Shown here one piece after another: positions 4,787 to 32,923 of a stretch of 64,000 nt of DNA (position 1 is the first letter of the stretch; every line of letters begins with the position of its first letter). The stretch comes from Chlamydiales bacterium. GTDB taxonomy: Bacteria > Chlamydiota > Chlamydiia > Chlamydiales > SM23-39. Made by a program: the position numbers and the translations under genes. Location: the NCBI GenBank assembly GCA_028278035.1, contig JANQFC010000027.1, positions 74,289 to 138,288 on the forward strand, written 5' to 3'. The notes under the pieces are model-generated. The model was not told the origin of the DNA. It ran no database searches and was given only the letters and a program-made list of their open reading frames with translations.

Positions 4787-6625
4787 ATGTCTGTTTTGCA
4801 AACAAGTAATTTTTTTCAGTCTTTATATGATAAATTCCAAAGAGGATTATATTTAAACGATAAATTTGAAGAGTCGAAGGTAGATGTTCGATTATTAAAA
4901 TTCGGAAAATTTATAGGTGCTCTTCCTCAGTATTCTATAAACCGTATAGTTTTGAGCGTGCTTGAGAAAAGTAAAGAGCTTGTCAATAACTTTGATGATC
5001 GAGGCGAAACTGCGAATATTGAAATTGCCAGTGAAGAAGAATTGAAATATGCATGGAAGGTTTTGGCTTTTTTAGAAAAAAAATCATCAGTTAGTATAGA
5101 GAATAAAGGGACTCTTCAAATTTATAGGGCACACTGTTCAGATTTATTTAATAGGATAAAGGCATATGAATTAGCGGCAAAAAGATGTCAGGCTAGGTGG
5201 AAAGCAAAAATTGAGGCTGAGAGAACTAGAAGGTATTTCATTTTACCTAAGAATATAGAATTATTGAGAAAAGAACTTTCAAATTATAGATTTTTAGATA
5301 CAGAGGGCAAGGTTTATGAGTTTTGTAGGTTTTTATCTCAAATGATGAAAATATATTATGAAAGAGGGGTTAAATATAGATTTGATAGGCATAAGTCTTA
5401 TAGGATTCTTGATGTAAATTATGATTGTTTTGGGGTGGATTTTTGGTTTCAATTAGATAAGGAAAGACATGAAGTGTTTTTATATTTTAAACTTCCTGTT
5501 AAGTTAGGTGGTGGTGGATTTAAAGATGTATTTGCATCAAAAACATTTACTATTTCCATGCCTTATCATAATGGTCTTACAAGGGTTGTTACATATCAGC
5601 CTACAGGTTTTGCTCAAATAGTCTCTGGTAAAAAAAGTTTGCAAAAAGATGTTCTTAGAGGTCTTAAAGTTCAAAAACAACTAATACAGCAACTTTCGAA
5701 TGCTAGAAATATAGCGGTGTTGCCACTTTTTAAAGGAGATCACAACAACCGTCTAGAGCTTATTTTTCCTTGGTATAACGGCGATTTTTTTACTGTTAAC
5801 AATTCTTTAAGAGGAGCGCCGTTAGATATTGATAAAACTTCATACAAAATCTTGACATTAGAAGATAAAATGAACGTTCTAATAGATATTGGAATGGTCC
5901 TTGCGAAAATGCATAAAATGGCATTGGTGCACAGAGATGTAAAAGCTACAAATGTTTTAGTAAGATATGAAGGTGACAACTTATGGTCAGGCCATTTAAA
6001 TGATTTTGATTTAATTGAAGAGTTCGGAAAATGCTCTAACGCAAGAAAATATTGTTATTGGGATTTAGCATCTCAAGAAGGATGGGCAATTCCTACTTCA
6101 GATGCATATGGACTTCTAATGTGTATGGGCGAGGCTTTTTTTGGCAAAGAGTTTTTAGATAATTTTGTGTTTCATAGGGAAAAGTTTAAAGAAACTAGCT
6201 ATTTTACAATGCTGGAGAGAATTGTCTCGAAAAAAGTAAAAAATGAAATTGAAAGCTTAGGGGTGCAGATGGAAAGAGAATCTTATAATACCGACTGTCC
6301 CTCTAAAATTGATTTAGAGCTTCAGTATGTAGTCGATGTTTTAAGGAAATGTGATTTAACACAAGAGCAAAGACAGGGTTTAAATAGACTGAAAAAGGAA
6401 ATAAGAATTTTAGAGATAAACCATAATTTTATCCGGGAGTGTATAGAGAGAGATAAACAGCTTTATAAAATTCTTACTCAAGATCTTTCCTTGCAGCGTA
6501 AATTAGTATACAGCGATGTTCAACAAAAATTAGTCGGAGCTGAAATTTTATATGATATTTTTCCATCAGTTGAACAATTGATGCAAAGATGTATTTCTAT
6601 AAGAGATATTTTAAGAGCGGAATAA
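4787..6625 (+). CDS. Divergent protein-kinase-fold protein (eukaryote-like, effector candidate)
   Basis: Catalytic loop LVHRDVKATNVLV (HRDxKxxN). DFD in place of DFG (LNDFDLIEEFG). Gly-rich loop GGGGFKDVF. About 230 aa at the N-terminus and about 130 aa of helical C-terminus match no family I recognise. Confidence 0.65.
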   Translation: MSVLQTSNFFQSLYDKFQRGLYLNDKFEESKVDVRLLKFGKFIGALPQYSINRIVLSVLEKSKELVNNFDDRGETANIEIASEEELKYAWKVLAFLEKKSSVSIENKGTLQIYRAHCSDLFNRIKAYELAAKRCQARWKAKIEAERTRRYFILPKNIELLRKELSNYRFLDTEGKVYEFCRFLSQMMKIYYERGVKYRFDRHKSYRILDVNYDCFGVDFWFQLDKERHEVFLYFKLPVKLGGGGFKDVFASKTFTISMPYHNGLTRVVTYQPTGFAQIVSGKKSLQKDVLRGLKVQKQLIQQLSNARNIAVLPLFKGDHNNRLELIFPWYNGDFFTVNNSLRGAPLDIDKTSYKILTLEDKMNVLIDIGMVLAKMHKMALVHRDVKATNVLVRYEGDNLWSGHLNDFDLIEEFGKCSNARKYCYWDLASQEGWAIPTSDAYGLLMCMGEAFFGKEFLDNFVFHREKFKETSYFTMLERIVSKKVKNEIESLGVQMERESYNTDCPSKIDLELQYVVDVLRKCDLTQEQRQGLNRLKKEIRILEINHNFIRECIERDKQLYKILTQDLSLQRKLVYSDVQQKLVGAEILYDIFPSVEQLMQRCISIRDILRAE

Positions 6626-8170: not shown

Positions 8171-8836
8171 ATGAAAACAAAAGATTTGCATATTCCTTTT
8201 GATTGGGAAAATAGACAGCCGGTTATTGTTAATAGGCTTTTATATGTTCCAGCTTATTTTACTGAACATAAAAAATTTGATGAAAAGATAACTTTTGAAA
8301 AAAAGCAGCCTTTGAATATCGAGTACTGTTCAGGCAATGGTCAGTGGATAATAGACAAAGCGAAAAGCCATCCCGATATTAACTGGATAGCTGTTGAAAT
8401 GGATTTTCAGAGGGCTAGGAAAATTTGGGTTAAAATGCATAATGAAAATTTAAATAATCTCTTTGTTGTTATGGGCGAGGCTAAAACTTTTACAAAATAT
8501 TATCTTTTAAAAGAATCTATAGATAATATTTTTATAAATTTTCCGGATCCCTGGCCTAAAAAAAAGCATGCTAAAAATAGACTTTTGAAAAAAGATTTTT
8601 TAACGGAAGTTTCCAGAGTTTTGAAGCAAGATCATGAAATTACTGTGGTCACGGATGATACTGTATATTCCAAGCAGGCAATAGATACTTTTGTAGAACA
8701 TAAAGATTATCAAAATATCTATCCTAGTCCGTATTATGTAAATGAACTTATAGATTACGGGGCTTCTTATTTTAATGATTTGTTTGTTTCTCAAAAAAAA
8801 GATATTTTTTATATAAAATTTAAAAAACAGATCTAG
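8171..8836 (+). CDS. trmB: tRNA (guanine-N7)-methyltransferase
   Basis: SAM-binding block IEYCSGNGQW and the TrmB hallmark FPDPWPKKKHAKNRL. Confidence 0.85.
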   Translation: MKTKDLHIPFDWENRQPVIVNRLLYVPAYFTEHKKFDEKITFEKKQPLNIEYCSGNGQWIIDKAKSHPDINWIAVEMDFQRARKIWVKMHNENLNNLFVVMGEAKTFTKYYLLKESIDNIFINFPDPWPKKKHAKNRLLKKDFLTEVSRVLKQDHEITVVTDDTVYSKQAIDTFVEHKDYQNIYPSPYYVNELIDYGASYFNDLFVSQKKDIFYIKFKKQI

Positions 8837-8886
8837 CTTTTCAAATTAATTAAAATCAGTTATATCGAAAAGAAAAGCATGTTTTT

Positions 8887-10737
8887 ATGAAAATTGATCT
8901 AAAAAAAATATTCACTTTTTTATCCGGCATATTTTTAGTGGTCGGGTATGTTGTAGGCAAGTTAAATGGCTTTCAAGACATATTTTATTATATATGTATA
9001 GCATTTGGCGGCACTTATGTTGCTATAGATGCTTTTAAGGTAATTTTTGAAAGGCACTTTTTAGATATTAATTTTCTGGCTTTAATTGCAGCTGTCGGCG
9101 CTATTTTTATAAGTCAGCTTCCAGAAGCCGGAGCTGTGGTATTTTTATTATCTCTTGCTAAAGTCTTTGAAGAATACGGCATTGAAAAATCCAGAAAAGC
9201 AGTCGAGTCTTTAGTCAGAAAGTCTCCTAAAGAAGCTACTTTATTAGATGGAACTAAAAAGAAAATTGAAGATATCAACGTTAAAGACAAAATTATTGTA
9301 AAGCCTGGAGACATGATTCCATTAGACGGAATTATTACTAAAGGCCAGTCTTCTGTTGATGAAGCGACTATTACAGGGGAGTCTATTCCTAGAGATAAAA
9401 AAGAAAAAGACAGCGTTTTTCAAGGAACAATGAATATCAATGGATATTTGGAAATTGAAGTATCTAAAAAAAGTACAGATACAATTTATTCAAAGATAAT
9501 AAAACTTATTGAGCAGGCTCAAAAGTCTAGAGCTCCCATGCAAGAGTTTGTTGATGTTTTTGCTAAATATTATACTCCTATTATTGTAATATGCGCTTTT
9601 TTGTTAGCTGTTATACCTTCTTTATTTTTTAAAGAGGCTTTTAGCCCTTTTTTGTATAGATCTTTAGTGTTATTGGTTATAGCCTGTCCCTGTGCTTTGG
9701 TTTTGTCTACACCGGTAAGTGTAGCTTCCGCCATTGGAAGCGCTTCTAAAAAAGGGCTTCTTGTAAAAGGAGGTAAGTATTTAGAATTTTTAGCAAAAGT
9801 AAAGGCCATAGCTTTTGATAAGACCAAGACCTTAACCTACGGCAAGCCTTATGTTGAGGAAGTTATTACTTTTAATGATTTTTCTGAAAAAGAAGTCTTG
9901 GCCGATGCTGCAGGAATAGAAAAATTTTCTTCTCATCCTATATCAAAAAGTATTTTGGATTATGCGGAAAAGAAAAAAATAACACCTCATTTAATGAAAG
10001 AGTTTGAAAATATATCAGGAAAAGGTAGTCATGCTGTTTGTTTGGTTTGTGAGAACTTAAAGCACCTAATAGGCAATTTAAAATTATTCAAATCCAGTAT
10101 TGATATTTCTAAAGCGCATTTAGAGAAAATTGAGAATCTGGAAAAAAACGGCAAGACAGTAATTTTAGTGGGGGAAGGAGATAAGCTAACAGGAGCTATT
10201 TCTATTTCTGATAAAATTAGAGATGAAGCGGCTCAAGCTGTTAATGATCTAAAAAATATGAAAATAGAATCTATTGTTTTGACCGGCGATAATTATCATG
10301 CTGCAAATTTTGTTGCCCAAAAGTTAAATATTAAAAAAGTTTTTGCCTCTCTGCTTCCAGACGAGAAAGTAAATAAGATTAATGAATTAAAACAAGAATA
10401 TAAAATTATATCTATGGTAGGAGATGGTATTAATGATGCGCCGTCTTTAGCGACTGCATCAATTGGGATTGCAATGGGAGTGCAGGGCTCTGATGTTGCG
10501 ATAGAAACAGCGGATGTGGTTTTAATGAATAATAATTTATTGAATATTGTAAATGTTATAAAGCTTGGAAAAAAAACTATTAAAACGATAAAGCAAAATA
10601 TTTTTGCTTCCCTTTTAATAAAGTTTATATTTTTTTTACTGGCTGTAATCGGATATATGGAACTGGAATATGCAGTAATGGCAGATTCCGGAATAGCCCT
10701 TATGGTAATATTAAATAGTTTGAGATTATTCAAATGA
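8887..10737 (+). CDS. Heavy-metal translocating P1B-type ATPase (Cd/Zn/Co-like)
   Basis: CPC metal motif in TM (ACPCALVLSTP), TGES, phosphorylation motif reading DKTKTLT, hinge GDGINDAP. No N-terminal CxxC metal-binding domain. Confidence 0.9.
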   Translation: MKIDLKKIFTFLSGIFLVVGYVVGKLNGFQDIFYYICIAFGGTYVAIDAFKVIFERHFLDINFLALIAAVGAIFISQLPEAGAVVFLLSLAKVFEEYGIEKSRKAVESLVRKSPKEATLLDGTKKKIEDINVKDKIIVKPGDMIPLDGIITKGQSSVDEATITGESIPRDKKEKDSVFQGTMNINGYLEIEVSKKSTDTIYSKIIKLIEQAQKSRAPMQEFVDVFAKYYTPIIVICAFLLAVIPSLFFKEAFSPFLYRSLVLLVIACPCALVLSTPVSVASAIGSASKKGLLVKGGKYLEFLAKVKAIAFDKTKTLTYGKPYVEEVITFNDFSEKEVLADAAGIEKFSSHPISKSILDYAEKKKITPHLMKEFENISGKGSHAVCLVCENLKHLIGNLKLFKSSIDISKAHLEKIENLEKNGKTVILVGEGDKLTGAISISDKIRDEAAQAVNDLKNMKIESIVLTGDNYHAANFVAQKLNIKKVFASLLPDEKVNKINELKQEYKIISMVGDGINDAPSLATASIGIAMGVQGSDVAIETADVVLMNNNLLNIVNVIKLGKKTIKTIKQNIFASLLIKFIFFLLAVIGYMELEYAVMADSGIALMVILNSLRLFK

Positions 10738-26905: not shown

Positions 26906-27526
26906 ATGAAAGAAAAAACTTATTTTAAGATTTTGATAGATGGAAAAATTAGAACCATCACTAAAAAACAGTTAGAGGATTTAGTTGAAATAGATTATTT
27001 ACCAAGCTTGACGTTTGATAAGCTGCAAATAAAAGAAAAAATAGAAAAAAAGTGTATGCAGGCCGCCCGGTATGGATATATGCAAAAAGAGCACCTGTGG
27101 TTTGGTGCTTATTATGAAAAAGAAATTATAAACCACATAATTCCTGATGTATATCTTAAATGGATAGATCCAATTAAAGAGTATGGCCTTTATGCATGCA
27201 AAGATATAAAAAAACATACATTTATGGGAGAATATACTGGGATAATTAGGCGATACAAGAATAAAATAGACGATAGAAATGCATACTGTTTTGAGTATTC
27301 CATAGGTCAAAAAAAAACACCATATACCATAGATGCCAGAGAAAAAGGCAGTTTGATTAGATTTGTAAATCATTCAGATACACCTAACCTATCTCCTTTA
27401 TCTGTTTATTTAGAGGGGGTAATGCATATTATTTTCAGATCAAATAAAGATATAAAAAAAGATGAAGAGCTCACTTACGATTATGGGCCCAATTATTGGA
27501 AAAGAAGAGAAAAACCGAAGGTATAA
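26906..27526 (+). CDS. SET-domain lysine methyltransferase (eukaryote-like)
   Basis: SET hallmarks GLYACKDIKKHTFMGEYTG, RFVNHSDTPN (NH motif), ELTYDYG (post-SET Tyr motif). Confidence 0.85.
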   Translation: MKEKTYFKILIDGKIRTITKKQLEDLVEIDYLPSLTFDKLQIKEKIEKKCMQAARYGYMQKEHLWFGAYYEKEIINHIIPDVYLKWIDPIKEYGLYACKDIKKHTFMGEYTGIIRRYKNKIDDRNAYCFEYSIGQKKTPYTIDAREKGSLIRFVNHSDTPNLSPLSVYLEGVMHIIFRSNKDIKKDEELTYDYGPNYWKRREKPKV

Positions 27527-27529
27527 GAT

Positions 27530-28255
27530 ATGACATTCATTATGGGAAAAAATACTGTTAAAGAGGTGATTAAACATAAGCCGGACATAGTAAAAACTGT
27601 TTTTGTTTCAGAAAATGTTAAAAGAGATACGGCAGATCTTTTAAGAAAAAATAATATTCCTATTCAGACCGTCAATAAAAAAATACTGTCCTCTTATGTG
27701 AAATCTGATTCTCATCAAGGATATGTTGCAGTTGTTAAATCCAGAAATTACATGGATATTAAGGAATTTATCGAAAAGTCTTATGATAAAGAACAATGTT
27801 TTGTGTTAATAGTAGATAGCATTTTTGATCCACAAAACTTTGGTTCTATTTTAAGAACGGCTGAATGTTTTGGTGTGGATCTTGTTGTTTTTTCTAAAAA
27901 CAGGGGAGCTGAAATTACTCCTGTTGTTACTAAGGCCGCATGTGGAGCCACAGAACTATTAAATATTTCCAAGGTATCAAATTTAGCTCAAACAGTAGAT
28001 CTTTTCAAAAAAGAGGGGTTTGATATTGCAGCATCTGTATTAGATAAAAAATCAGTAGATATTAATGATTTTGAGTACTCTAAAAAAACAGTTTTAATAG
28101 TTGGCTCTGAGGGAGAGGGAGTTCAGCCTTTATTAATAAAAAAATCCGATCATCTAATAAAAATTCCAATGATCGGTAAACTTCAGTCTTTAAATGTATC
28201 TCAAGCTAGCAGCGTTCTATTATATAAAAGGCTACTTGATTTGAGGCCATTTTAA
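27530..28255 (+). CDS. rlmB: SpoU/TrmH-family RNA 2'-O-methyltransferase, probably 23S rRNA Gm2251 methyltransferase
   Basis: N-terminal substrate-binding domain plus SpoU motifs DSIFDPQNFGSILRTAECFG, VGSEGEGV, SLNVSQASSVLLY. Confidence 0.75.
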   Translation: MTFIMGKNTVKEVIKHKPDIVKTVFVSENVKRDTADLLRKNNIPIQTVNKKILSSYVKSDSHQGYVAVVKSRNYMDIKEFIEKSYDKEQCFVLIVDSIFDPQNFGSILRTAECFGVDLVVFSKNRGAEITPVVTKAACGATELLNISKVSNLAQTVDLFKKEGFDIAASVLDKKSVDINDFEYSKKTVLIVGSEGEGVQPLLIKKSDHLIKIPMIGKLQSLNVSQASSVLLYKRLLDLRPF

Positions 28256-28525
28256 TCCCATAGTTGAAATGCCTTTTTGAGCTAACCAGTTATCTATGTT
28301 TTCTTCTATAACTTTAGCCTTTATTATGATCTCAGATAAATCAGCTGAGCTATCTACCGTATTGGTATGGTCTATCAAGTCTAATATTTCATTATATAAC
28401 ATATCATCAATGTCATCATAGCCATTGTCAGTACACTTCACTAATGTAGTTCGAAGCCCTGCTAGGTTTTCTAGTATCAGTTCTTTCATAATCAAGAACT
28501 TTTCTAAATCGGTATTTTTTTTCAT
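28232..28525 (-). CDS. Small acidic hypothetical protein (97 aa)
   Basis: Helical, strongly acidic ORF 26 nt downstream of and co-directional with the ANK gene. Its 3' end overlaps the convergent rlmB-like gene by 24 nt. Coding status uncertain. Confidence 0.4.
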   Translation of the reverse strand: MKKNTDLEKFLIMKELILENLAGLRTTLVKCTDNGYDDIDDMLYNEILDLIDHTNTVDSSADLSEIIIKAKVIEENIDNWLAQKGISTMGLKWPQIK

Positions 28526-28551
28526 AACTATCTTTATTTAAATTATTAATC

Positions 28552-29358
28552 TTAAACTTCATTACCTTCATAATATTGACTAAAATCAAGCTTGGCATAA
28601 GGATCTTGAGGGGTTGTTTTTTCTAAATAAGTAGCAAGCTGGGTATGGCAGCGGGATTTGGCCATATCTAAAGCAGTTTCCCCAGCAGAGGTTTTTGCTG
28701 TAGTGTCTGCTCCAGCTTTAATAAGCACAAAAGCGACGTCTGGATTGCCTAATGCCGCAGAATGCAGCGGAGTCGTTCCGTTTAAATCTGTAGCTTCTAT
28801 TTCAGCTTGATATCTAATCAATAAAGAAGCCATGGCACAGCTAGTTGTCAAGCTTTGTGTAGTTGTGGATTCTAGTCCTGCATAATGCAGAGGTGTTAAT
28901 CCCCGAGCATTTCGAATGCTTGGATCAGCTCCGAGCTCAAGAAGGTGTTGAAAATCATCCCAGTTTCTATAAATAACAGCATTATGCAAGACTGTTTGTC
29001 CGTCTGCATCAAGCTCACTTAAACTTTGCTGGCATTTCTCAACTTTTTTAAGACATGTGCCATCATATACCGGAAATAACTTTGTTCGTGTATAACAATA
29101 TATTCTGGACATAAGTCCATGCAATCCGTCTTTTGTATCTTTTTCAGGGCATAGATGCATTGCATAGTTATATTGAAAATATTGAGGATGTCTCTCTGCG
29201 ATGGGATGTTCGCAAAGAGTTTCTATATCATTTAGACAATTGAATATTTTTTGTTCGACAGTTTCTCCTCTGAGTTCAGGGGCAGCGGCTGCTGCTAGAG
29301 CTGGTGTTGCACGAAAAACTAATCCAATCAGTCCGGTTGCTACTGCTGTAAGTGCCAT
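28552..29358 (-). CDS. Exported/anchored ankyrin-repeat protein, paralogue A
   Basis: Ala-rich hydrophobic N-terminus (MALTAVATGLIGLVFRATPALAAAAAP), a Cys-containing middle module, and C-terminal ANK repeats (DGQTVLHNAVIYRNWDDFQHLLELGADP, GLTPLHYAG, GTTPLHSAALGNPDVAFVLIKAGAD, GETALDMA). Visibly higher GC than its neighbours. Confidence 0.8.
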   Translation of the reverse strand: MALTAVATGLIGLVFRATPALAAAAAPELRGETVEQKIFNCLNDIETLCEHPIAERHPQYFQYNYAMHLCPEKDTKDGLHGLMSRIYCYTRTKLFPVYDGTCLKKVEKCQQSLSELDADGQTVLHNAVIYRNWDDFQHLLELGADPSIRNARGLTPLHYAGLESTTTQSLTTSCAMASLLIRYQAEIEATDLNGTTPLHSAALGNPDVAFVLIKAGADTTAKTSAGETALDMAKSRCHTQLATYLEKTTPQDPYAKLDFSQYYEGNEV

Positions 29359-29450
29359 GAAAATACTCCTTTATTTCAATAAAAATTTAGAAAAAGCTAA
29401 TAAAGAAAAAAAATATAGTCAAGCATATTTTTTATATTGGAAAAATTTAA

Positions 29451-30191
29451 CTATCTTTTTCTGAAAGAATTCAAAAAGAAAAACCAAAGGTATGAAATGT
29501 ATCTTTTGATTTTTAAGTGTTCTTCTTTAGATTTTAAATTGTCGCTTATTATTCTATAGGTTATTCCTGTTATGTTTTGCCAGGAAAAATTAATAGCAGA
29601 TCCAATTCTCATAACATATTTATAGTGTTTTTTTACGCATTTGTGTATTTCTTCATTAAATTTACCTAGCGGATAAACAAAAGTGTCAATTTTAGTATTT
29701 AGTTTTTTTTCTAAGAATTTTTTGGATTCTTTGATTTCTAAATTGAAATCGACTTTATCTTTTAAAAGGTTTTTGTGGTTATAAGAATGAGAGGCTATAT
29801 AAACTAAACCACTGTCATGCATTTCTTTTATTTCTTTCCAGGAGCAAAAAGGAACTTTTGTTTTGTAATTATCATTTTTCATAGCCTCATGATAAGTAAC
29901 AGACAATCTTGTTTTATCATCTAAATAAGTGTCTTCTTGAATGAATTTAATAGGAACTGCTAAAACAGCTTTGATTTTTAAATTTTTTAAAAGAGGGAAC
30001 ACATACTTATAAAAATCGAAGTATGCATCGTCAAAAGTTAAGCAGATATTCAATTTAAAGAGATTGATTTTGTCTTGCGGAATTACAATTTTATATTTTT
30101 GAGATAAATATTTCAAATGTTCATATATTTGCTTTTCTGTATTAGCATATTTTCCAATAGATACTCTATGATATAAAAAAGTAAGTAGCAT
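29451..30191 (-). CDS. Polysaccharide deacetylase (NodB-homology) family protein
   Basis: LTFDDAYFDFY (TFDD motif) and ASHSYNH (His motif), 246 aa. Confidence 0.7.
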   Translation of the reverse strand: MLLTFLYHRVSIGKYANTEKQIYEHLKYLSQKYKIVIPQDKINLFKLNICLTFDDAYFDFYKYVFPLLKNLKIKAVLAVPIKFIQEDTYLDDKTRLSVTYHEAMKNDNYKTKVPFCSWKEIKEMHDSGLVYIASHSYNHKNLLKDKVDFNLEIKESKKFLEKKLNTKIDTFVYPLGKFNEEIHKCVKKHYKYVMRIGSAINFSWQNITGITYRIISDNLKSKEEHLKIKRYISYLWFFFLNSFRKR

Positions 30192-30192
30192 A

Positions 30193-30963
30193 TTATTTTT
30201 TATTAATTTCTTCTAATTTTAAATATTTATACAAAGCGGTATTTGCATTATATAGTGATATAATAAATCCTTCTTTTCCACCAAAAATGCCTTTTTTTAT
30301 TATATAGCTTTTAAAAAAAGCAAACAATGAGTGAGCGATAGCTTTTAATAAAGAAGAATCTTTTTTATTTTTATTTTGATTAGCAAATAAAGTTGAGTAA
30401 TGGCTCATTTTTTTTAAAAAATCGTCTAAATTTTGATATGAATAATGATTAATAGGGGATTGAAAAGATATTTTGTTCAATCCTTTATCAAGTAATTTTT
30501 CATGAACTAAAGAATTTGAAAAATGAGTTTTGTTTTTATTATATAATCTAATGTGGCTTTCTGGATACCAGCCGCAGTATTTGATTAGTTTATTATTAAA
30601 ATAATTATGGAAATTAAAGGAATAAACATTTATCTCGTTAAGAGATATGTTTTTTAATTCAGCTTGCAGTTGTTCAGATAAGGCTTCGTCGCTGTCTAAT
30701 GCTAAGATCCAATTGTTTTTAGCGATATCAGCTCCTTTATTTCTTAAAGGTCCATAACCTATAAAATCTGAAAAATGGATTTTTACATTTTTATAGCTTT
30801 TGGCAATCTCTATTGTTTTATCTGTTGAACCATTATCTAAAATAATGATCTCATTAAGCTGCTTAATAGACTCTAATGTGTTTTTTAGGGTCTTATCTGA
30901 GTTTTTTGTAAGTATTACTGCACTAATCATAAATGAAAATAATACCATAGTTTGAAAAAGCAA
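30193..30963 (-). CDS. Family 2 glycosyltransferase (LPS-core KdtX/WaaE-like)
   Basis: ISAVILTKNSDKTL...IIILDNGSTDKT...ILALDSDE (DxD). About 256 aa, a size typical of soluble GT2 LPS-core enzymes. 1-nt gap to the deacetylase gene. Confidence 0.8.
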   Translation of the reverse strand: MLFQTMVLFSFMISAVILTKNSDKTLKNTLESIKQLNEIIILDNGSTDKTIEIAKSYKNVKIHFSDFIGYGPLRNKGADIAKNNWILALDSDEALSEQLQAELKNISLNEINVYSFNFHNYFNNKLIKYCGWYPESHIRLYNKNKTHFSNSLVHEKLLDKGLNKISFQSPINHYSYQNLDDFLKKMSHYSTLFANQNKNKKDSSLLKAIAHSLFAFFKSYIIKKGIFGGKEGFIISLYNANTALYKYLKLEEINKK

Positions 30964-31047
30964 TCTAGATATTAAAAAAAGTATCTTTATGCAACAACAA
31001 AGATACTTTGTTCTAATTAAAGGTTTTTCTTGGATAGGTTATATATC

Positions 31048-31758
31048 TTACACTTTTTTCACATTATCACATATAACAGGAACCTGTTTAAAATATGCCT
31101 GTTTTTCTTGTAGTTCTTTTGTGAGCTCTCTTCTTGCATTCAGAACAGATAAGTCTAATGCTGTATAACCTGAGTAAGTTTCTGGATAAGGATATGCTCC
31201 AGCGCCAAGCAACATCAAGCCTATTTCTTCACTTTTTATAGCTGCCATATGCAGAGGCACAAAGCCTTGATCGTCCCCAATATTAATTTTAGCACCAAAT
31301 TCAGTAATGTTTTTAGCTGCAGCATAATCTTTTTCTTCTACTGCTTTAAGTAAAGGAGTTTGTTTGTGTTCATCTTGCTCATTAATAGTTTCTATACAAT
31401 GATCGATCACTTCTCGGCACGGCTGTTTGTCATCATATCCAAAATTGCCATGGCTTACATAACATTTTAATCTTGCAAGATAGCCGACTATTTTGTTTGT
31501 CCAATGAGCTATTTTATCTACAGCAGATTGGTTTGCATATGGATCTTCACATTGATCTATTAGGAACTCATATAGATTAGGATGATCTTCAACTCCCGCA
31601 TATTCGCCGCATTGTCTGCCTATATCCTCTATACACCTTTGAATATTTCTCTGAACAGAGTTTCCTTCTAAAGCCGGATCTGTTACAGCAGCCGTAGCTA
31701 ATGTTGATGTTGCTTGAGCTGCTACTGCTGCAAAGCCTGCTGCTACCGCCAATGACAT
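31048..31758 (-). CDS. Exported/anchored ankyrin-repeat protein, paralogue B
   Basis: Same architecture as 28552-29358: MSLAVAAGFAAVAAQATSTLATAAV N-terminus, an alignable Cys module (VQRNIQRCIEDIGRQCGEY versus VEQKIFNCLNDIETLCEHP), then ANK repeats (KQTPLLKAVEEKDYAAAKNITEFGA, GFVPLHMAA, GYTALDLS). Confidence 0.75.
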   Translation of the reverse strand: MSLAVAAGFAAVAAQATSTLATAAVTDPALEGNSVQRNIQRCIEDIGRQCGEYAGVEDHPNLYEFLIDQCEDPYANQSAVDKIAHWTNKIVGYLARLKCYVSHGNFGYDDKQPCREVIDHCIETINEQDEHKQTPLLKAVEEKDYAAAKNITEFGAKINIGDDQGFVPLHMAAIKSEEIGLMLLGAGAYPYPETYSGYTALDLSVLNARRELTKELQEKQAYFKQVPVICDNVKKV

Positions 31759-31918
31759 AGTGTTCTCCTTTTGTTTAGTTTAGAAATTTTCAAAAAAAGT
31801 AATGAATAATAAATATATGGTCAAGTTATCTTTTGCAGTTTTTTAATTTTACCTAAAAAATATTTATAAATTGTTGTATAGTTTTGTTGTTTGATACAAA
31901 AAAATAAAAAGGTAATAC

Positions 31919-32923
31919 ATGAAAAAATCTTATACTTTTGACGATGTTGCGTTAATTCCCCAATATAATAATATTCCTTCTAGAACAGAACCTTCTTTAA
32001 AAAGCTGGCTTACCAAGGATGTTAAAATAGACATTCCTATTATGGCATCTAATATGGACTCTGTTATTTCGGATGAATTGGCTGAGATATTAATTAAAGA
32101 AGGCTCGATTCCGATATTTCATAGGTTTACAGATTTTGAAACTCAAAAAAAATGGGTGAAAAAGTATAAGGAAAAATCATTTGTTTCGTGCGGCATTAAA
32201 AATATTGATTATCCAAGCAAGTTATTTGATTTGGGTGCAAAAGGTGTTTGTATTGATATAGCTCACGGCCATTCCAATAAAATGTTGGATTTTATAGAAC
32301 AGCTTAAGAAAAAACATCCGGACAAACAGATTGTTGCTGGTAACGTTTGTACTGCTGTAGCTTATCATGATTTGGTAAATGCGGGAGCAGACGCGGTAAA
32401 AGTGGGTATTGGCCCAGGGGCTATTTGTACAACTCGGATGGTAACTGGGTTTGGGGTGCCTCAGTTTACTGCTATTCAAGACTGTGCCCATATAGCAGAC
32501 AAATTGCGAGTCCCTTTAATTGCGGATGGAGGGATTAGAACAAGTAGAGATGTTGTTCTAGCCTTGGCTGCAGGGGCCAGCTCTGTTATGATAGGAAAGC
32601 TTTTTGCGTTAACTGATGAAAGTGCTGCTGTCAAGAAAGAAACAAAAGATGGGCTTTATGCAAAATATAGAGGTCAGGCAAGTATAGACTTTCAAAATGA
32701 TTACTATGGCAAGGTAAAAGAAAAAACAACTGCAGAGGGAGTTAATTTTTGGGCTAAAACATCAGGCCCAGCTGTTAATTTAATAAATGAGCTTTTAGGT
32801 GGTATAAGAAGCGGAATGACTTATGGAGGCGCTAGAAGTTTAAAAGAACTGCAGAGAAAAGCTGAGTTTACAGAAGTAACAACTTCTTATATATTTGAAA
32901 GTATGCCAAGGCCTCATAAATAG
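31919..32923 (+). CDS. guaC: GMP reductase (IMPDH/GMPR family, no CBS insert)
   Basis: 334 aa. [35 protein letters not shown] (catalytic Cys), IADGGIR. Layout resembles Bacillus-type GuaC. Confidence 0.75.

Follow-up and report, generated by a model that had tools for sequence, protein, structure and literature searches.

Two paralogous ankyrin-repeat genes with an orphan six-cysteine module, apparently added to a conserved chlamydial gene block

We analyzed a 64,000-nucleotide stretch of DNA (here called the window) from a chlamydial metagenome-assembled genome (MAG), focusing on five minus-strand genes that lie close together within it: two ankyrin-repeat (ANK) genes, ANK-A and ANK-B; a glycosyltransferase gene, GT2; a gene for a NodB-type polysaccharide deacetylase, PDA; and acid97, which encodes a small acidic protein. 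The source genome consists of 1.79 Mb in 97 contigs with a GC content of 30.7%, and the window lies on a 303-kb contig (JANQFC010000027.1, positions 74,289 to 138,288). The closest GT2 loci in named records are those of "Parachlamydiales bacterium" (JBAZUK01) and "Candidatus Anoxychlamydiales bacterium K940_chlam_1" (JAAKFJ01), which are the same-family genomes referred to below as G011 and G024. Because the genome encodes SctV (FHIPEP, the export gate of type III secretion), DsbB, and two secretins, the organism is an uncultured chlamydia that has type III secretion and can form disulfides in its periplasm, and it probably has type II secretion as well. The features of the locus are as follows (positions are those of the window).

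28232-28525, minus strand: acid97, a 97-amino-acid (aa) small acidic protein; at its 3′ end, it shares 24 nt (28232-28255) with the 3′ end of the convergent SpoU gene
28525-28535, minus strand: copy 2 of an 11-nt direct repeat, AAAGATAGTTA read on the minus strand, ending on the A of the acid97 ATG
28552-29358, minus strand: ANK-A, 268 aa, called from its open reading frame (ORF) and Pfam
29281-29358, minus strand: ANK-A leader, residues 1 to 26
29005-29280, minus strand: ANK-A six-Cys helical N-terminal module (N-module), residues 27 to 118
ANK-A residues ~119 to 250: ANK repeats
29366-29433, minus strand: ANK-A upstream region, homologous to that of ANK-B, with TTGACT (29417-29422), 17 nt, TAGCTT, and AAAGGAG
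29448-29458, minus strand: copy 1 of the 11-nt direct repeat, comprising the final PDA codons, the TAG stop, and TTA
29451-30191, minus strand: PDA, NodB-type polysaccharide deacetylase, 246 aa
30193-30930, minus strand: GT2 glycosyltransferase, with a probable start at ATG 30930; the longest ORF begins at TTG 30963
30971-31017, minus strand: AT-rich, terminator-like hairpin followed by U7, 3′ of ANK-B, with a 13-bp core stem
31048-31758, minus strand: ANK-B, 236 aa, with a leader (residues 1 to 27) and 2 to 3 ANK repeats
31366-31677, minus strand: ANK-B six-Cys N-module, residues 28 to 131
31765-31834, minus strand: ANK-B upstream region, homologous to that of ANK-A, with TTGACC, 17 nt, TACTTT, and AAAGGAG

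An earlier note on this DNA had described five close minus-strand ORFs at 28232-31758, and these are present as claimed. The gaps that it gave as 26, 92, and 1 nt are correct. Its 84-nt gap between ANK-B and GT2 is probably 117 nt, since the GT2 orthologues in three relatives (G011, G024, and G017) begin with MIS(V/A)VIL, which corresponds to ATG 30930, 33 nt inside the longest ORF. Pfam bore out its domain calls, namely, ANK repeats in both proteins, a deacetylase, and a glycosyltransferase.

ANK-A and ANK-B carry 2 to 4 ANK repeats per protein, and the Pfam model Ank_2 (PF12796; cutoff, 27.3 bits) matched ANK-A with 74.5 bits (E = 1e-20) and ANK-B with 29.9 bits (E = 8e-7). The two proteins were 28% identical over 159 aa by BLASTP (E = 1e-16). 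Their N-modules (residues 27 to 118 and 28 to 131) aligned with a Smith-Waterman score of 85, compared to 26.7 ± 5.0 for shuffled sequences, of which 0 of 2,000 scored as high, and this similarity persisted at a z of 7 when Cys was changed to Ser. BLASTP of the N-modules alone gave no alignment, a seeding or composition artifact in view of the highly significant Smith-Waterman result. ANK-A and ANK-B are true paralogues with a common, unusual N-terminal architecture, as the earlier note had held; the Cys-containing motifs that it quoted occur in both proteins, and each module in fact contains six Cys. These lie at positions 41, 49, 70, 88, 102, and 109 of ANK-A and 42, 50, 70, 99, 114, and 121 of ANK-B, giving both modules the pattern CX7C ... 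C ... C ... CX6C, with CX7C in predicted helix 1 and CX6C in the last predicted helix ahead of the ANK stack. AlphaFold2 modeled both N-modules as all-helical with low confidence and modeled the ANK stacks well. The ANK-A model matched DARPins in the PDB (E of ~5e-8); the fold search returned DARPins only, the N-module being too poorly modeled for searching. Between the two genes, dS was 1.41 and dN was 0.70. Since synonymous sites are saturated, the paralogues appear to be old; of 66 conserved residues, 34 have identical codons in the two genes, versus 29.6 expected.

The N-module was detected in 0 of 60 relatives and in 0 of 102 other genomes of the family, and nothing in the PDB matched it at an E of ≤10. 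We also scanned 1.84 billion representative proteins, standing for 15 billion clustered proteins, exhaustively with HMMER; this returned the two window proteins and one spurious match only, the tandem-repeat protein P0122. The lone weak match among the family genomes, in G014, was RsmH. When ANK-A was used in a word-indexed search of 5.8 billion proteins, only ANK-repeat matches were obtained, which were uninformative on origin. NCBIfam equivalogs for Dot/Icm Ank proteins (T4SS_AnkH, AnkY, AnkG, AnkX, and AnkQ) scored 18 to 45 bits against cutoffs of 500 to 1,400. By these searches, the six-Cys N-module is a true orphan among 15 billion clustered proteins.

To compare neighborhoods, we mapped the window proteins onto 12 to 16 kb around the GT2 orthologue from 20 related genera. 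Related genera carry a conserved block, adk-OsmC-SET-SpoU-acid97-PDA-GT2-GuaC-HD, without an ANK-module gene. The distance from GT2 to acid97 was ≤900 nt in 11 genera, leaving no room for an extra gene, and only PDA or nothing lay between them; acid97 directly follows PDA or GT2 in these 11 genera and is 15 to 33 kb away from GT2 in others. The PDA stop and the acid97 ATG are separated by 3 to 12 nt in G024, G011, and G017, and the GT2-GuaC spacing in relatives is usually about 100 nt. Wherever both genes were captured in relatives, acid97 and the convergent SpoU gene adjoin at the SpoU 3′ end, 6 to 121 nt apart. In the window, one ANK gene occupies the divergent GT2-GuaC spacer and the other occupies the PDA-acid97 junction. 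Because the block is conserved without ANK genes and the N-module was found nowhere else, both ANK genes appear to be lineage-specific additions to two spacers of an old block.

Several other features of these neighborhoods were recorded. The SET-domain gene (window positions 26906 to 27526) is next to SpoU in many genera of the family, with 40 to 64% identity (loci L044 to L046, L050, L053, L059, and L061); this conserved position suggests that the gene is old and vertically inherited in the family and is not a recent acquisition. In L050 (G022), L061 (G032), and G035, PDA is not between GT2 and acid97, and the GT2-acid97 spacing is 11 to 58 nt; the deacetylase thus appears to be dispensable in part of the family. 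Two tandem copies of GuaC (GMP reductase), 73% and 69% identical to the window GuaC, adjoin GT2 at positions 5218 to 7290 of L062 (G003:C13), a further sign of local duplication at the site. The GT2-GuaC spacer of G011 (L045, G011:C2; positions 8406 to 9200, plus strand) contains a 264-aa ANK gene with an eight-fold DLPT repeat. We rejected it as an orthologue of the window genes: it is on the opposite strand, lacks the Cys module, and is similar only at the level of the repeats, and other ANK genes of the source genome (G000) match it better than the window pair does. Since an unrelated ANK gene is found there, the GT2-GuaC spacer seems to tolerate repeated insertion, which suggests that it may be a recurrent landing site for ANK genes.

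The ANK-A insert spans 912 nt and is bracketed by the exact 11-nt direct repeat AAAGATAGTTA (minus strand). Removing the insert together with one repeat copy leaves ...AAAGATAGTTATG..., which is like the junction in G017 (...GATAGTTTTTTTATG). By a rough calculation, the probability of a repeat exactly at both orthology-defined borders is ~1e-3. A 10-nt repeat around ANK-B was not significant (found in 436 of 2,000 shuffles). A 36-nt imperfect inverted repeat bracketing ANK-A (28513-28548 and 29380-29415) was complementary at 29 of 36 positions and was equaled in 1 of 500 mononucleotide shuffles; we rejected it as a terminal inverted repeat because one of its arms is coding sequence of acid97, it shares positions with the 11-nt repeat, and A/T runs make up most of it, and it is probably due to chance. 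No pseudogene remnants of a second copy longer than 8 to 11 nt were found.

The duplicated unit extends beyond the coding sequence. The two ANK genes have homologous sequence over about 70 nt upstream, with 53 of 72 positions identical in a local alignment. The alignment score of 26 exceeded that of shuffled sequences (12.4 ± 2.0; 0 of 1,000 as high) and was reached by only 8 of 5,528 natural AT-rich segments of the same genome; nhmmer found no third copy in the genome. Both regions contain TTGAC(T/C)ATAT..., 17 nt, and TA(G/C)(C/T)TT, followed by AAAGGAG 6 to 7 nt before the ATG; in ANK-A, AAGGAG is 7 to 8 nt from the ATG, and an in-frame stop is found 4 codons upstream. That the upstream regions are still alike while synonymous sites are saturated implies constraint, and the constrained region would most simply be a common promoter and 5′ leader. 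Each ANK gene would then be transcribed from its own conserved TTGAC-N17-TAnnTT promoter-like element and probably has a promoter of its own. The downstream flanks of the two genes showed no significant similarity. The hairpin and U7 after ANK-B have a predicted energy of -15.7 kcal/mol (z = -3.2; 1 of 200 shuffles folds as well), and the ANK-B transcript probably ends there. A consensus promoter and terminator scan gave fewer matches than in shuffles and was hence uninformative; it passed over this hairpin, whose stem has <3 GC pairs. Because no comparable hairpin follows ANK-A, transcription from ANK-A probably reads through into acid97, and no obvious terminator was found between PDA, ANK-A, and acid97.

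The leaders (residues 1 to 26 or 27) are hydrophobic, Ala-rich, and uncharged over the hydrophobic (h) region, and they contain no acidic residue. Mean Kyte-Doolittle values over 12 residues from residue 3 were 2.14 and 2.27, and AXA-type sites could be read from the sequence at A20-L21-A22|A in ANK-A and A21-T22-A23|A in ANK-B. Both proteins thus show the h-region of 10 to 15 residues followed by small residues at -3 and -1 that is typical of type I Sec signals; neither has a K or R ahead of the h-region, and the sole R of the ANK-A leader, at position 16, lies past it. The earlier note's proposal that the N terminus is a signal peptide or anchor is plausible: the h-region and AXA sites are in support, as are the DsbB, secretin, and SctV genes, and the basic n-region was not found. 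The leaders resemble each other (z = 3.9), and among 1,604 ORFs of the genome, only ANK-A and ANK-B have ≥10 Ala in the first 30 residues. A signal-peptide-type N-terminal hydrophobic stretch was present in 38 of the 113 nearest ANK matches. Sec-exported or periplasmic ANK proteins are known: Pseudomonas aeruginosa AnkB, Bdellovibrio Bd3460, and Rickettsia RARP-1, the last being Sec-TolC secreted or periplasmic (PMC9553169). Sec export is our best guess for the ANK pair, at about even odds; type III secretion is a weaker and rather unlikely alternative. The leader would then be a Sec signal, cleaved after the AXA site near residues 21 to 23, or a signal anchor. Because six conserved Cys lie on predicted helices and the genome encodes DsbB, the all-helical module may be oxidized by the Dsb system in the periplasm into a disulfide-stapled cap. 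The short ANK stack would bind a protein partner, as an adaptor, in the periplasm or envelope or, alternatively, after type II release, would bind a partner in the inclusion or host. A more far-reaching proposal, which we regard as speculative and improbable, is that the leader and six-Cys module form a new export or anchoring device that tethers the ANK stack to the disulfide-cross-linked chlamydial outer membrane complex or retargets the protein within the host; under this proposal, the lineage would have evolved the module de novo and retained two diverging copies of it, both with a shared conserved promoter.

Taken together, these data are best read as a conserved chlamydial block that received two copies of a self-contained, lineage-specific ANK cassette, to which we assign a probability of roughly 0.65. 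The cassette of ~0.9 kb would comprise the promoter-like region, a Shine-Dalgarno site, and the ORF. A first cassette would have been acquired, or have arisen, upstream of GT2, and a second copy would then have come to lie downstream of PDA by local duplication, for which we infer two possible routes. By route (a), [ANK-GT2-PDA] was duplicated in tandem and the redundant GT2-PDA copy was then lost, so that the 11-nt repeat would consist of the spacer and the terminal 8 nt of the PDA copy that was lost; such a history would leave same-orientation paralogues flanking GT2-PDA and would need no mobile element. By route (b), a copy of the cassette was inserted directly with an 11-bp target duplication. 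Route (a) is slightly favored over route (b). By either route, the position of the ANK genes beside glycan genes is probably a by-product of duplication and does not mark a functional module.

Several points weigh against this interpretation. The direct repeat is short, and an exact repeat of ≥11 nt arose somewhere in the flanks in 33 of 2,000 shuffles (1.65%); the repeat is also equally compatible with routes (a) and (b). The sequence inside the 11-nt repeat has no terminal inverted repeats, and there is no transposase ORF in positions 28000 to 32100. The promoters and terminator are sequence-based predictions; the -10 hexamers fit the consensus at 3 of 6 positions only, and the consensus scan did not list these sites. 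The leaders lack a basic n-region, unlike the MKK-type N termini on some other ORFs of the genome. AlphaFold2 confidence (predicted local distance difference test [pLDDT]) is only about 30 to 74 over the N-modules, which makes disulfide pairing conjecture. Lastly, the genus is represented by a single genome.

Other explanations of the locus were weighed against the duplicated-cassette reading. The earlier note took high GC as a mark of the ANK genes, and its counts (29 of 60 at 28681-28740 and 15 of 60 at 29461-29520) are exact. Gene GC is 0.41 for ANK-A and 0.38 for ANK-B, against 0.25 to 0.26 for GT2 and PDA, so the ANK genes are indeed richer in GC than their neighbors and fall in the 97th to 99.6th percentile of the genome. 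One could take them for a recent foreign island from a GC-richer donor, either a host eukaryote or another bacterium. An amino acid composition unlike that of the proteome (Ala, 12% versus 5.7%; Cys, 3.0% versus 1.1%; Lys, Ile, Asn, and Phe all lower by roughly one-quarter to three-fifths) would fit such an origin, as would the lack of the ANK module in relatives. However, GC at third codon positions (GC3) is 0.245 and 0.219 (59th and 38th percentiles), close to the genome mean of 0.233 ± 0.047, and the excess is confined to codon positions 1 and 2 (0.54 to 0.56 and 0.37 to 0.43), so recent transfer is not indicated and GC loses its value as a sign of foreign origin. The excess mirrors amino acid composition. 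Other ANK genes of the genome likewise combine high GC at positions 1 and 2 with low GC3 (for example, C21:44994; GC, 0.394; GC3, 0.203). The paralogues are old, and no donor homologue was found among the 15 billion clustered proteins. We consider a recent foreign island improbable; an ancient transfer followed by amelioration may have occurred.

The five genes could instead work as a single module, with exported ANK proteins joining GT2 and the deacetylase in acting on an envelope glycan or on how this glycan is presented to the host. They are co-directional and closely spaced, the stretch from PDA through acid97 is free of obvious terminators, and there is a precedent in Bd3460, a periplasmic ANK protein of Bdellovibrio described in PMC9553169 as controlling cell wall enzymes. 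Yet GT2 belongs to the core genes of the order, with 56 of 61 genomes having it, and its linkage to PDA is widespread, with the ANK module in no relative: GT2-(PDA)-acid97 is compact and ANK-free in 11 genera. The earlier note had named a lack of linkage to glycan genes in other genomes as speaking against its proposal, and this is what was found, with the N-module in none of the 102 family genomes or 60 relatives. PDA and GT2 have no signal peptide, so an exported ANK protein would not share a compartment with them. The conserved upstream region of each ANK gene and the terminator-like hairpin after ANK-B also run counter to the single five-gene transcription unit that had been proposed. We therefore judge a five-gene module very improbable. 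Alternatively, the ANK proteins could be type III effectors, with the uncharged, Ala/Thr/Ser-rich N terminus as the secretion signal and acid97 as a class I chaperone of ANK-A. SctV is encoded in the genome, the first 26 to 27 residues are free of acidic residues and unstructured in AlphaFold2, and acid97 is small and acidic. But the N termini are as hydrophobic as signal peptide h-regions, which is unusual for type III signals, and the six conserved Cys suggest folding in an oxidizing compartment. Moreover, acid97 predates the insertion and is present in 89 of 102 other family genomes, which lack the ANK module; chaperone and cargo do not co-occur, and a role of the small acidic ORF as an ANK partner is not supported. 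This proposal is unlikely.

The remaining genes of the cluster belong to the old block. GT2 matched PF00535 (Glycos_transf_2; E = 2e-17), and its best PDB match was the GT2 domain of GmaR; no NCBIfam equivalog scored above its cutoff. For this gene, which the earlier note labeled KdtX-like, the matches show general GT2 family membership. PDA matched PF01522 (Polysacc_deac_1; E = 1e-18; 68 bits; cutoff, 23.1) and contains the Asp-His-His metal-binding motifs, visible as LTFDD and SHSYNH in its translation. Its PDB matches include PgaB, BpsB, and other deacetylases, and its orthologues in relatives are 45 to 73% identical. Both enzymes probably work on a sugar acceptor at the cytoplasmic face. 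The two genes are also found as a pair in other chlamydial families and are occasionally paired in Campylobacterota and Flavobacteriia. The nearest nonchlamydial GT2 homologues, with identities of 46 to 48%, come from two MAGs, one of Campylobacteraceae (L069) and one of Helicobacter (L070), and a PDA-like gene lies near GT2 in the latter and in a more distant Sulfurovum locus (L081; 33% identity); there are hints here of an old interphylum exchange of the pair. acid97 (K+R, 11; D+E, 18) has no match in Pfam or NCBIfam and appears, from its distribution, to be an ancestral member of the block and not an ANK partner.

The ANK pair was compared to known systems. Like the Sec-exported or periplasmic proteins RARP-1, AnkB, and Bd3460 (PMC9553169), the window proteins combine a hydrophobic N-terminal signal, a non-ANK region, and a short ANK stack in a Gram-negative and, in part, obligate intracellular setting; unlike them, they have an extremely Ala-rich leader without a basic n-region and a six-Cys module without homologues, and their export is predicted. 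With the Dot/Icm Anks of Legionella and Coxiella and the Anks of Orientia and Ehrlichia, they share the character of lineage-specific, fast-evolving, duplicated ANK genes in a host-dependent bacterium, and the NCBIfam T4SS_Ank models weakly match the window ANK repeats. Those effectors, in contrast, carry C-terminal type IV or type I secretion signals, and the window pair has an N-terminal hydrophobic leader. As in twin-CX9C (CHCH) hairpins, the Cys pairs lie one or two turns apart on predicted helices and would permit interhelix disulfides, but the spacing is CX7C/CX6C and not CX9C/CX3C, there are two extra Cys, there is no sequence similarity, and the pairing is conjectural. Tandem segmental duplications with loss and target-site-duplicating cassettes likewise give co-oriented paralogues around single-copy genes, a short exact direct repeat at the insert borders, and a control region copied with the gene; the window differs in that terminal inverted repeats, a transposase, and second-copy remnants of >8 to 11 nt were not found.

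The pair is thus best described as two orphan ANK proteins, probably exported, that contain a new six-Cys module and were duplicated, putative promoter included, into a conserved block. This description removes two inferences, one being that an envelope-glycan module is the center around which host interaction proteins are organized and the other that the ANK genes make up a GC-rich foreign island. Its practical value is modest, since the pair is present in one uncultured genome only. The locus nevertheless provides a worked example of an obligate intracellular bacterium adding effector-like genes to a conserved operon while leaving the operon unbroken. The insertion went into a junction of 3 to 12 nt, the 11-nt repeat keeps both the upstream stop and the downstream start intact, and the promoter-like region was duplicated along with the ANK gene. 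In composition, the leader is an extreme of its proteome, and the two proteins, provided that they are exported, would bring a new kind of domain into the small set of periplasmic or secreted bacterial ANK proteins.

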